DNA from: Escherichia coli
GTDB lineage: Bacteria > Pseudomonadota > Gammaproteobacteria > Enterobacterales > Enterobacteriaceae
Length of the DNA stretch: 64,000 nt
Direction: 5' to 3' (one strand)
NCBI RefSeq assembly: GCF_029227855.1
Contig: NZ_CP074356.1
Shown here piece by piece: positions 48,038 to 52,342 of the stretch. Numbering within the stretch: the first letter of the stretch is position 1; each line of letters begins with the position of its first letter. Both the position numbers and the translations under genes were made by a program. The notes below the pieces were generated by a model. That model worked only from the letters and a program-made list of their open reading frames with translations, had not been told where the DNA came from and did not search any database.

Positions 48038-49018
48038 ATGCGCAAATATCGTCTAAGTGAAGAACAGCGAGCCTTTAGTTATCAGGAAGATGGCACTAAA
48101 AAAAGTGTGTTATTACGGCAGATTATCGCCATTAGCGATTTTAACGATGTGATAGCAGGAACCGCTGGCGGCTGGATCGATCGCGAAACGGTGTTAGCAC
48201 AGGAAGGAAATTGCTGGATTTACAACCAGAATGCTATTGCGTTCGGCGGAACGGTGATTTCCGGTAATACGCGTATCACCGGCACCAGCATGCTGTGGGG
48301 AGAGGTTTACGCAACGGATAACGTCTGGATCGATAATAGTGAAATCAGCCAGGGTGCATATATAAGTGACAGTGTCACCATTCATGACTCATTAGTTTAC
48401 GGGCAATGTAGAATATTTGGTCACGCCTTAATTGATCAACATTCTATGATCGTCGCCGCACAAGGCTTAACGCCCGACCATCAACTCCTGCTCCAAATTT
48501 ATGATCGCGCAAGGGTTAGCGCCTCGCGTATTGTCCACCAGGCACAAATTTATGGCGATGCCGTCGTCCGGTATGCTTTTATTGAACATCGCGCCGAAGT
48601 TTTTGATTTTGCCAGCGTTGAAGGTAATGAAGAGAACAACGTCTGGCTATGCGATTGCGCTAAAGTCTACGGTCACGCGCAGGTGAAAGCTGGCATAGAA
48701 GAAGATGCCATTCCGACGATTCATTACAGTTCGCAGGTGGCGGAATATGCCATTGTGGAAGGTAATTGTGTGTTAAAACATCATGTCTTGATTGGCGGAA
48801 ATGCCGTGGTATGTGGCGGACCGATTCTGCTCGACGAGCACGTTGTCATACAAGGTGAGAGCCGTATTACAGGTGCGGTGATAATTGAAAACCATGTGGA
48901 GTTAACCGACCACGCCGTCGTTGAAGCCTTTGATGGCGACACGGTTCATGTCCGTGGTCCAAAAGTCATTAACGGCGAGGAACGCATTACTCGAACGCCA
49001 CTGGCAGGGTTATTGTGA
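48038..49018 (+). CDS. ydcK: Hexapeptide-repeat (left-handed beta-helix) protein YdcK
   Basis: 326 aa with repetitive hexapeptide pattern. Confidence 0.85.
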
Positions 49019-49549
49019 ATCGATAATAAGCGCGTATAAGTTCACATCATCATAGGCATCATTCAGGAACTCAGCCTGTTTCAGGCAACCTTCAAGGATA
49101 AAACCATTGCGCAAAGCGACCTGGTTGCTTTGCGCATTGTCCACCCGACATTTGATCACGAAGCGTCTAAGTTCACCAGACTGAGCGTAATGATGAATCA
49201 ATGCCTGCAGCGCCTGAGAAATGATCCCCTGCCCCTGATGAGATTCGTCCAGCCAGTAGCCGATTTCAGCGGTTTTATTCAGTGGTTCAATACGATTAAA
49301 CGAGATAACGCCGATAAGTTCATCTTCTTTGAAAATCATGAACATTTTGGCATATCCGCGTTGATGCAACATTACATTGCCCTGCACCGTTTTTCGCGTG
49401 TCCTCTTCACTTTGAACAAACTGCGGCCAGTTTAGCGACTGCTGTAACCAGGTTTTATTTTTACAGATTAACTGATAAAGAGGTGTGACGTGATTTTCTG
49501 CAACAGCATGTAATTCAAGTGATTCGCTTACTTTTATCGTTTCAGTCAT
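49010..49549 (-). CDS. rimL: Ribosomal protein L7/L12 serine acetyltransferase
   Basis: Start at MTETIKV gives 179 aa; GNAT. Confidence 0.85.
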
Positions 49550-49604
49550 CTTATCTCCAGTCACTCCATGCAGTTGTTAATAAATATCCTCCGGCATAGC
49601 CGGA

Positions 49605-50320
49605 GGTTTTTCAAATGCGCCTATAAGGCTCTCTTACCAGCCGCGCCCTAACAGGCGCACACGATCTGACATTTGCATCCAACTTCGTTACTTACGGCCC
49701 GTAAACGGGCTGCCCGGATAGGGAATCGATAACTGCTCTCCCATTTTATCCTCTTCAAGCTGGTGCTTTGTGTAATCCTGTATCTTCGCCGTGTTCTTAC
49801 CCACTGTATCGACGTAGTACCCTCTGCACCAGAACTCCCTGTTCCTGTATTTGAATTTCAAATCACCAAACTGCTCGTAAAGCATCAGACTGCTTTTCCC
49901 TTTCAGATATCCCATAAACCCGGATACGCTCATTTTAGGCGGGATCTCCACAAGCATATGGATATGATCTGCACAGCATTCAGCTTCCAGAATCCGTACG
50001 CTTTTCCACTCACACAGCTTTCTCAAAATACTGCCTATTGCTCTACGCTTCTCTCTGTAGAACACCTGTCTTCGGTATTTTGGCGCAAAAACTATGTGAT
50101 ATTTACAGTTCCATCGGGTGTGCGCTAAGCTCTTTTCGTTCCCCATTGGGACCCCCTTTTGATTTCTTGTTTGACACTTGCAGTTGCCAGACCGCAAGGT
50201 GTTTTAACAAATCAAAAGGGGTTTTAATAACAGGCTCAAAGCTGAAAGCTTTCCGGAACCCCCAGCCTAGCTGGGGGTTTTCTGTGCACAAAAAAGCCGC
50301 CTGGCTGGCGGCTTAGGAAA
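49605..50320 (-). mobile_element. IS200 insertion sequence (IS200/IS605 family)
   Basis: About 0.71 kb element with 459-bp tnpA, perfect palindrome near the tnpA-proximal end (aacccccagcctagctgggggtt, about 50260..50283) and a second hairpin; boundaries approximate. Confidence 0.75.
49688..50146 (-). CDS. tnpA: IS200 Y1 (HUH) transposase TnpA
   Basis: 152 aa starting MGNEKSLAHTRWNCKYHIVFAPKYRR; catalytic HxH (DHIHMLVEIPP) and Tyr region; near-identical to IS200 TnpA as remembered. Confidence 0.9.
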   Translation of the reverse strand: MGNEKSLAHTRWNCKYHIVFAPKYRRQVFYREKRRAIGSILRKLCEWKSVRILEAECCADHIHMLVEIPPKMSVSGFMGYLKGKSSLMLYEQFGDLKFKYRNREFWCRGYYVDTVGKNTAKIQDYTKHQLEEDKMGEQLSIPYPGSPFTGRK

Positions 50321-50322
50321 GT

Positions 50323-50547
50323 TTACACCTCTTTGACGCTCTCCTGCTGCAGGATTTTGAGCATCTCATCTTTTAACTGTAGCTTTTGTTTTTTCATGCG
50401 GACCACTTCCGCATTGTACCCTCGACCGTCGGAACCTTCCTTTCTGGCAATTTCATGATCAAGTTTATTGTGTTTATCGAACAAGGACATAAAGCGAGGA
50501 TTTTCGTTTTTCAGACGGGATATTAAATCTCGATATTCTGGAAACAT
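50323..50547 (-). CDS. ydcH: Small protein YdcH (DUF465)
   Basis: 74 aa from the second in-frame Met; synteny. Confidence 0.75.
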   Translation of the reverse strand: MFPEYRDLISRLKNENPRFMSLFDKHNKLDHEIARKEGSDGRGYNAEVVRMKKQKLQLKDEMLKILQQESVKEV

Positions 50548-50686
50548 ACGCACTCCCTGTTAGTGGCTGACAAGGTGTATCTGAAATACACACCATCAGA
50601 TTACTCATTTAACTTAGGGAAAAATGCGAGCGGGATCGTGTTTAACCAGACGGCACCTCCCGAAGAAGGTGCCGAAGAAAAAACGA

Positions 50687-52342
50687 CTAACTCATCACGC
50701 GGTCGTCAACATACTGACGTTTATCCGGCGCTGGCGGGAAATACTGATACAGCCATGTTTCACTGATAGCGTCCCCCTGACAACGCAGATACATCCGCAT
50801 ATCGACCGGATCAGTGGAGTCCGAAGTCGGATACCAGTCAAACTGAATACGATAACCATCAATTGGTTCAATATAGAGAATTTCGATTTGCTTCGCTTCC
50901 CCACTGGAAAGCGTAATCACCGGCTCAATGCCTTTTGGCGCGGCAGCTTTCAGATCACCACCAACGAAATCGACGGCAAAACGACGCGCCCATTTTTCGG
51001 GATAGTGTTCACCTGGAGCCCAACCTTCCGGGAAACCGCCCATGCCGGTACGCGTCGCCATAACGCGCGCTAATGGGCAATGAACAGGCGGTTGCGCGCT
51101 CCAGTACAAACGATACTGGAATGCAAACTCATCACCCGCTTTTACAGCTTTTTCTGGCTGCCAGAAGCAGACAATGTTATCCAGCGTTTCACCCGTAGTA
51201 GGGATTTCCATCAGGCCGATGGTGCCCTTACCCCACTTGTTACGCGGCTCCACCCACAGACTTGGGCGTTTGTTATACCAGCCCATAATGTCCTGATAAT
51301 GAGAGAAATCACGATCCAGTTGCAATAAACCAAACCCTTTCGGGTTGTTGTCGGTGTAAGCATTGAACTGCAATTTTTGCGGATTGTTCAGCGGACGACA
51401 AATCCACTCGCCATTGCCCCGCCACATGGACAGACGATCTGAGTCATGGATTTGCGGATGAATGGTGTCGCACATCCGACGTTCATTAGTACCGCAGCTG
51501 AACATGCTGGTCATCGGCGCAATGCCCAGCTGTTTAATGTCTTTGCGCGCATACAGGTGATTTTCCACATCCATAATCACCTGACTTTTCTCACAATGGA
51601 TAGTGAACTTATAGGCACCAGTAATGCTGGCGCTATCGAGCAACGCATAAACGGTAAAGGTGGTTGCCCCCGGTTTTACCGTATCAAACCAGAAGGCAGT
51701 AAAGTCGGGGAACTCTTCTTTACTGTCGGTGTAAGTGTCGATCGCCAGGCCGCGAGCCGACAAACCGTATTGATATGTATCATCAACCGCGCGGAAATAA
51801 CTCGCGCCGAGGAATGATACGACATCACGGCGCGCCAGTTCGGGGGCTTTAAACACGCGAAAACCGGCAAAACCGAGATCGCTTTGCCCTTCTAATTGTT
51901 TGGTATCAACACCCGCATCGTTGTATTTGAACAACTCCGGGCGAAAGTGAATTTCACGCGCCAGATGTGTTGCGGGATCAACAGAAAACATACGAACGCG
52001 GCGGCGGAATCCCATTCCCATATGGAAGAACTGAGCGTCTAGTTGACGGTTCTCAACGTTATGCCAGAGCGATTTTTCGGCGTCGTATTGAATACTGTTA
52101 TAAGCCTGCGGCGTCATTGTCGCCAGCGTGTCAGGTAACGGACGAGGCGCACCACGCCACGCGGTTTGCGCTAAGTCGTGCGCCATTGACTGTAGAATGG
52201 AGAAGTCAAAACGTTGGGTTTGCCCGTCGGCAATATCAGAATCTGCCGCGAATGCCGCCTGAGAAAAAAGAGAAGCAATGCCGCTGGTACCGCACACGGC
52301 GGCCATAGCCATTGAACCTTTAATAAATCGTCTACGATCCAT
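50687..52342 (-). CDS. opgD: Glucans biosynthesis protein D (periplasmic, Tat signal)
   Basis: 551 aa; twin-arginine signal [10 protein letters not shown]. Confidence 0.9.

Follow-up and report, generated by a model that had tools for sequence, protein, structure and literature searches.

Background

The target of IS608 in Helicobacter pylori is the tetranucleotide TTAC, and that of ISDra2 is a specific pentanucleotide. In IS608 there is base pairing between the tetranucleotide of the cleavage site and the four bases that lie 5' of the foot of the hairpin (summarised in PMC6006769). The expression of IS200 is kept very low, the antisense RNA art200 and Hfq being among the factors according to published work on this element, and in Salmonella IS200 a terminator is located at nt 12–34 and an element sequestering the Shine-Dalgarno sequence at nt 69–138, with art200 as an RNA of 90 nt whose 5' ends lie at nt 153/154 of the element (PMC4513863). 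The left hairpin of IS200 is reported to stop about 85% of the incoming transcripts (PMC5435999). In Yersinia a copy of IS1541 is found between pheL and pheA, which is the position of an attenuator-terminator (PMC3082878), and a preprint from 2025–26 reports that 40% of 20,314 IS200-family copies have a terminator external to the element, upstream of its ORF, and reads this outside terminator as damping the expression of the transposase.

The DNA analysed here, a stretch of 64,000 nt from Escherichia coli (hereafter the window), contains an element that is almost certainly an intact 711-bp IS200 copy of the E. coli IS200C type (IS200/IS605 family) with the T-tract of the ydcH terminator as its target. 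The element is of a known kind and this very copy is already annotated: the window DNA is 100% identical to the corresponding locus of E. coli JNEC-KY178, which in RefSeq carries the PGAP product 'IS200/IS605-like element IS200C family transposase'. The isoform name IS200C is taken from this PGAP label of the identical locus and not from an ISfinder alignment, and is used here as a putative assignment. Wider interest attaches only to the tight association between IS200-type elements and intrinsic terminators.

The IS200 copy between rimL and ydcH

When the window was compared base by base with K-12, where the rimL-ydcH interval is an empty site with 62 nt between the genes, the inserted length was found to be 711 bp, and the alignment to this empty site together with the same ends at three other host sites places the complete element at 49579..50289 on the minus strand. 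The preliminary description had recognised an IS200 of about 0.71 kb, absent from K-12, between the two genes, and with all IS200 hallmarks present in the 711-bp insertion and the K-12 interval unoccupied this is borne out; of the interval that it gave, 49605–50320, the length was right but both ends were displaced when aligned to the empty site. The start at 49605 lies inside the right-end hairpin (49588–49606) and loses 26 bp of the element, most of that hairpin included, and the end at 50320 lies 31 bp past the left tip (50289) and takes in host DNA with the ydcH terminator. With the corrected limits the ydcH terminator is host DNA and the right-end hairpin is part of the element.

The IS200 copy, ydcH and rimL all have one orientation, on the minus strand. 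The upstream neighbour is ydcH (DUF465; 50323..50547, minus strand), whose stop codon is found 33 nt from the left tip of the element, and the downstream neighbour is rimL (49010..49549, minus strand), encoding the GNAT acetyltransferase of ribosomal protein L7/L12, with its ATG 29 nt from the right tip. The copy had been described as lying upstream of rimL, as it does, and immediately after the ydcH stop, although it is situated 33 nt downstream of it and past the terminator. This intrinsic terminator (AAGCCGCCAGCCAGGCGGCTT followed by TTTT; 50290..50314, minus strand), identified by DNA folding and a terminator scan, is host DNA that is unchanged in K-12, and consists of a stem-loop at 50294–50314 and a T-tract at 50290–50293, the last T of which abuts the tip of the IS. 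It was left whole by the insertion, with the hairpin and six Ts kept.

In its own orientation the element begins with GTGCACAGAAAA and ends with GGAGGATATTTATT. The left junction reads ...GGCGGCTTTTTT (host) followed by GTGCACAGAAAACCCCCAGCTAGGCTGGGGG... (element) and the right junction ...CCTCCGGCTATGCCGGAGGATATTTATT (element) followed by AACAACTGC... (host). There is a 2-nt AA/TT ambiguity at the limits, the alternative placement being 49581–50291, and TT flanks the filled site on both sides and occurs a single time in the empty one, a pattern that is the same at the opgD-ydcH site described below. The comparison of filled and empty sites would fit either an insertion with no duplication (711 bp, the host target ending in TT and the element in TATT) or one with a 2-bp TT duplication (709 bp). 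The former would correspond to the behaviour of the IS608 paradigm, and a clear target duplication does not appear to be present at this copy.

Head-to-tail tandems of IS1541 are present in Y. pestis NCTC5923 (at about 348, 3115 and 2042 of the stretches L102, L103 and L105, respectively), reading ...GGAGGATATTTATT followed directly by GTGCCCAGAAAA... at the junction. This junction, in which the right end is joined to the left end, is the expected circle-junction sequence, and the tandems show that the element's own TATT end can be used as a target. As an arbiter of the TT ambiguity they were considered and rejected, as both boundary placements yield one and the same string.

Structured ends and regulatory region

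The palindrome AACCCCCAGCTAGGCTGGGGGTT at the left end (IS nt 11–33; 50257..50279, minus strand) was predicted by both RNA and DNA folds and is found only once in the 64-kb window, with no occurrence expected by chance. According to its published function it serves both as the subterminal hairpin that TnpA binds on single-stranded DNA and as a bidirectional terminator against incoming transcription (PMC4513863, PMC5435999). Further in, a long stem-loop in the 5'UTR (IS nt 69–137; 50153..50221, minus strand) buries the ribosome-binding site AAAGGGGG in the RNA fold; the left 160 nt fold with -61.5 kcal/mol (z = -4.4) and none of 200 shuffled sequences did as well. These two structures, which match positions 12–34 and 69–138 of Salmonella IS200 (PMC4513863), are the palindrome and the second hairpin that had been noticed in the preliminary description at the tnpA-proximal end.

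Rfam RF01405 (STnc490) is matched along its entire model at 50156..50279 on the minus strand (145.2 bits, gathering score 56, E = 5.6e-31). The match identifies the regulatory left end of IS200 and is read as a region marker only. The Rfam model matches the tnpA-sense (5'UTR) strand and the published STnc490/art200 is antisense to the UTR (PMC4513863), so the strand of the hit is not to be taken as the strand of the sRNA. When the published coordinates are transferred, art200 is predicted, by homology only, at about 50138..50227 on the plus strand.

Directly 5' of the left-end hairpin a comparison of tip variants points to GAAAA (50278..50282, minus strand) as a putative guide for a T-rich target. 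This motif precedes the left hairpin in most tip variants of different taxa, the bases 5' of it being variable, and the right-end hairpin is preceded by GAAAAA. By analogy with IS608, a pairing of the A-run guide GAAAA with a T-run target would be the natural reading.

The right-end subterminal hairpin CCTCCGGCTATGCCGGAGG (49588..49606, minus strand; DNA fold -10 kcal/mol, z = -3.2) was also detected by the terminator scan. Like the left hairpin CCCCCAGCTAGGCTGGGGG it is built of an 8-bp stem and a 3-nt loop, the two differences in the stem being compensatory. The tail ATATTTATT (49579..49587, minus strand) is defined by the junctions at four different host sites, and the TATT at the end of the element is presumed to be the right cleavage site. 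No terminal inverted repeats were found when the left end was compared with the reverse complement of the right, 8 of the 30 terminal bases matching.

The transposase and its variant residue

The gene tnpA (49688..50146, minus strand) encodes a Y1 (HUH) transposase of 152 aa with matches to Pfam PF01797 (Y1_Tnp; E = 9.7e-37, 126 bits, cut-off 23) and to the NCBIfam equivalog NF033573 (transpos_IS200; E = 2.1e-42, 144 bits, cut-off 55). In an alignment to IS608 TnpA (2a6m; E = 1.5e-18) H61 and H63 fall on H64 and H66, Y125 on Y127 and Q129 on Q131, the roles of these residues in IS608 TnpA, Y127 as the catalytic one among them, being assumed here. The alignment places the HUH codons, H61-I62-H63, at 49958–49966 and the codon of the catalytic Tyr125 at 49772–49774, all on the minus strand. 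The element carries tnpA alone, since the other ORFs inside it are short overlaps with no family match, and in 711 bp with only such ORFs there is no room for a TnpB of about 400 aa.

A near identity to IS200 TnpA had been proposed from the outset, and besides the family matches it is supported by the common E. coli IS200C protein WP_000526135.1, from which the protein is one residue off. The sole difference is I126T, codon 126 (49769–49771, minus strand) being ACA for Thr where the consensus has Ile. At this position Ile is found in IS608, in two Sulfolobus (archaeal) structures, in IS1541, in a Vibrio homologue and in the common IS200C. Among about 15 billion proteins the exact T126 protein was found elsewhere on a single metagenome contig of 757 bp. 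Apart from this contig, the IS200 subtype together with I126T is present in 1 of the 5,426 complete genomes of E. coli.

Being located beside the nucleophile Tyr125, the substitution may impair the TnpA of this copy. If the transposase were crippled by it, the complete copy would be a passenger moved only in trans by the other copies of the genome, for which there are 24 matching places in JNEC-KY178. That residue 126 directly follows the nucleophile and is Ile in all compared relatives, solved structures included, speaks for such a passenger, as does the near absence of the exact variant from the 15 billion proteins, but the exchange of Ile for Thr, on a helix, is moderate and a single recent neutral mutation would give the same picture, and we consider a crippled transposase possible but rather unlikely. 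With its ends whole the copy could be mobilised in trans. We infer that it is still mobile, and the circumstances that bear on this are the near-identical copies at different sites, the 24 matching places in JNEC-KY178 and a site that is empty in nearly all other genomes.

Occupation of the ydcH-rimL site in E. coli

Of the 5,426 complete E. coli genomes at least 2,041 contain a near-full-length IS200, and the number of matching places in a single genome reaches 36. Junction-specific searches for an IS200 at the exact position of the window recovered the right junction in 20 of the 5,426 (about 0.4%), whereas 14 had the left junction. The occupied sites are of the window type (1 genome), of an avian-strain type whose IS200 has an IS3 element in its left tip (5 genomes), of the '746' type (4 genomes, plus SCU-109, which has IS100 inside IS200, and AF40) and of the 'Z0117EC0005' type (8 genomes).

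Between the window and the 746 type the elements differ at 31 of 711 positions (4.4%) and the flanks at 4–5 of 600, and a 746-type element (1 nt different) is also found in the background of the Z0117EC0005 group, where the rimL flank differs at 18–21 of 600. Such diverged elements in near-identical flanks imply that insertion at the ydcH-rimL site is recurrent, and on the simplest reading the sequences reflect at least two insertions, and probably three or four, that took place independently at one nucleotide. The presence of an IS200 here is therefore by itself prone to homoplasy and a weak lineage marker. In the preliminary description the copy had been regarded as a useful marker because IS200 transposes rarely, a view weakened by the comparison of the rimL-ydcH interval across related genomes, in which the same nucleotide is filled in about 20 of the 5,426 complete genomes by elements that have diverged within near-identical flanks. 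Subtype together with I126T offers informative and specific characters; presence or absence of IS200 at the site is unfit for lineage typing when used alone.

A single ancient insertion inherited by descent, which would make occupancy of the ydcH-rimL site a clean lineage marker, would agree with the small proportion of filled sites (about 0.4% of the complete genomes) and with the very low transposition frequency of IS200 in the laboratory (PMC4513863). It is nevertheless very improbable, as it would have to accommodate elements of the window and 746 types that are 4.4% apart within 600-nt flanks only 4–5 positions apart, a 746-type element with 1 nt changed next to a rimL flank 18–21 positions apart, the occupation of the neighbouring opgD-ydcH hairpin and of the lpdA terminator in other strains, and as many as 36 matching places in a genome. 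To date the event, close relatives without the insertion were looked for, and the next-best genomes were only 98.8% identical over 12 kb. Their alignment is split into four pieces that add up to the same total length, as expected if an IS200 sits at opgD-ydcH, an arrangement that was verified for EC556 and UPEC69.

This second IS200 site, between opgD and ydcH and just after a hairpin, is located at 50643/50644 (minus-strand context GGTGCCGTCTGGTT followed by AAACACG) and is empty in the window. It is filled in EC556, EC571, EC581 and UPEC69 and, judging by the match pattern, in many other genomes with 17–30 IS200 places. All E. coli sites examined (the ydcH terminator, the hairpin downstream of opgD and the lpdA terminator) are found just after a hairpin, with the IS co-oriented with the upstream gene.

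In isolate AF40 (NZ_OZ547043.1; stretch L130, 1995–2453) there is a single IS200 and ydcH is absent. The left flank of this IS200 is that of the opgD side (...GTCTGGTT) and the right flank that of the rimL side (AACAACTGC), the equivalents in the window being 50643/50644 and 49578/49579. The arrangement would be the expected product of recombination between two co-oriented IS200 copies at the hot-spots flanking ydcH.

Nested insertions were seen in two of the occupied types. In strain 64.1 (L007, 244–1499) an IS3-family element is situated in the extreme left tip of the IS200, a feature of five poultry strains, and in SCU-109 (L129, 2354–4155) IS100 (IS21 family) lies between tnpA and the right end. 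That such insertions are tolerated suggests that the site is selectively cheap.

Association with intrinsic terminators

With the 19-nt left hairpin CCCCCAGCTAGGCTGGGGG as query one genome per species was scanned, giving at least 120 stretches (L008–L127). The exact 19-mer is common to distant phyla, with occurrences in Proteobacteria, Bacillota, Desulfovibrionaceae, Elusimicrobia and Saccharibacteria, which argues for a wide horizontal spread; the taxa include Y. pestis (IS1541), Vibrio, Brenneria, Oxalobacter and Mailhella/Desulfovibrio. In MAGs of Ruminococcus and Eubacteriales the same 19-mer is followed by ATGCTTATT or TATTTCTT (L037, L092–L100; L034, L090, L091, L096, L097), and there it looks like a right-end hairpin or the hairpin of another IS200/IS605 element rather than the left end of an IS200.

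A flank was regarded as terminator-like when a hairpin of -8 kcal/mol or stronger was found directly before a tail with at least four T in six positions. Among the 97 unique host flanks, from 18 taxa, 94% were terminator-like (hairpin and T-tract); for positions drawn at random from the same loci the value was 0.7%, and for random positions that end in TTTT or TTTTT it was 17–18%. The difference between flanks and controls is highly significant (Mann-Whitney p about 1e-49) and the pattern is found in nearly every taxon. The last host bases are TT at 96 of the 97 sites and TTTT at 62 of them. A strict detector for terminators with a perfect stem recognised 58 of the 97 flanks, missing mostly imperfect hairpins, and was abandoned for the folding-energy criterion. 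The idea that the host terminator mimics the right end of the IS at a fixed distance was likewise rejected, the distance from stem to insertion being spread over 0–9 nt.

As a tentative proposal, in which our confidence is low, elements of the IS200 group would actively select intrinsic terminators, landing at the end of the T-tract and co-oriented with the terminated gene, by pairing of GAAAA with the T-run, the target hairpin possibly exposing single-stranded DNA. The association could also partly reflect the survival of harmless insertions rather than a choice of target. If active selection is true, it would be a mechanistic targeting rule and not survivorship, accounting for recurrent sites such as the ydcH terminator, and paired insertions at terminators would explain the deletion of the gene between them, as with ydcH in AF40. 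Given target choice, the association could help in predicting hot-spots of insertion and deletions mediated by IS elements. In the literature searched, which had the older IS200/IS1541 papers and the main family review outside its scope, no explicit terminator-targeting rule was found beyond the statistical association of the preprint cited above, and such a rule may already have been described.

Proposed transposition, repression and effect on rimL

Judging from the IS200/IS605 family, the copy would transpose by 'peel and paste', in which a dimer of the Y1/HUH TnpA would bind the subterminal hairpins on one strand. It would make its cuts immediately 5' of the left tip, where the host TT ends, and at the right end behind the terminal TATT. 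Excision would give a single-stranded circle, which would re-insert into single-stranded DNA on the 3' side of a short target that is not duplicated, the target in this case being, on the proposed scheme, the T-tract of the ydcH intrinsic terminator. As IS200-type elements are nearly always found at terminator T-tracts, the same position would be filled independently in several lineages.

Repression of the copy would, from published IS200 work, involve the terminator hairpin of the left end, art200 and Hfq. Three terminator-like structures are found before rimL, namely the ydcH terminator, the left hairpin of the IS200 and the right hairpin followed by ATATTTATT (this last one in the terminator scan as well). 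The native sequence left upstream of the rimL ATG is 29 nt, and no consensus sigma-70 promoter was found when positions 49400–50700 were scanned. It is plausible that the insertion alters the expression of rimL.

Comparison with known elements

IS200C copies found elsewhere on the chromosome in other strains are 2–8 nt away from the IS200 copy of the window, those of UPEC69 and EC556 only 2–3 nt, and at three other host sites the copies have the same two ends. That it would instead be a truncated or decayed, immobile remnant or another member of the IS200/IS605 family, the case that the preliminary description had named against itself, is extremely unlikely and, with regard to the cis elements of a remnant, already refuted: the coordinates first given implied that the right-end hairpin was missing, and I126T adjoins the catalytic tyrosine, but both ends are complete and shared with the copies at the three other sites, the full-length ORF retains HUH and Tyr and matches the IS200 group, only 2–3 nt separate the element from the IS200C of UPEC69 and EC556, and 711 bp leave no space for tnpB.

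With the founding element, IS200 of Salmonella enterica, and with IS200C it shares the size class of 707–711 bp and a single gene for a Y1 transposase of 152 aa, as well as the left terminator hairpin, the stem-loop sequestering the Shine-Dalgarno sequence and the art200/STnc490 region. The right-end hairpin is also present in these elements and inverted repeats are absent. The published Salmonella IS200 differs in being 707 bp, with a numbering of the left tip that is offset by 1 nt (PMC4513863), while the common E. coli IS200C differs in having Ile126 in TnpA where Thr126 is found here.

IS1541 of Yersinia pestis and Y. pseudotuberculosis has the same architecture, with an identical 19-nt left-end hairpin, right-end hairpin and tail, and all of its 24 unique flanks examined have a hairpin and a T-tract upstream. 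It differs at the level of sequence, the DNA identity being 87.3% and TnpA being identical to that of the copy described here at 143 of 152 residues, and its left tip is GTGCCCAG compared with GTGCACAG in this copy. IS608 (Helicobacter pylori) and ISDra2 belong to the same Y1/HUH fold family, have subterminal hairpins and insert 3' of a short target without duplication. In contrast to the IS200 copy, however, both of them carry tnpB and have specific targets, whereas here tnpB is lacking and the insertion follows a run of T with TT at its end, which is usually a terminator tail.
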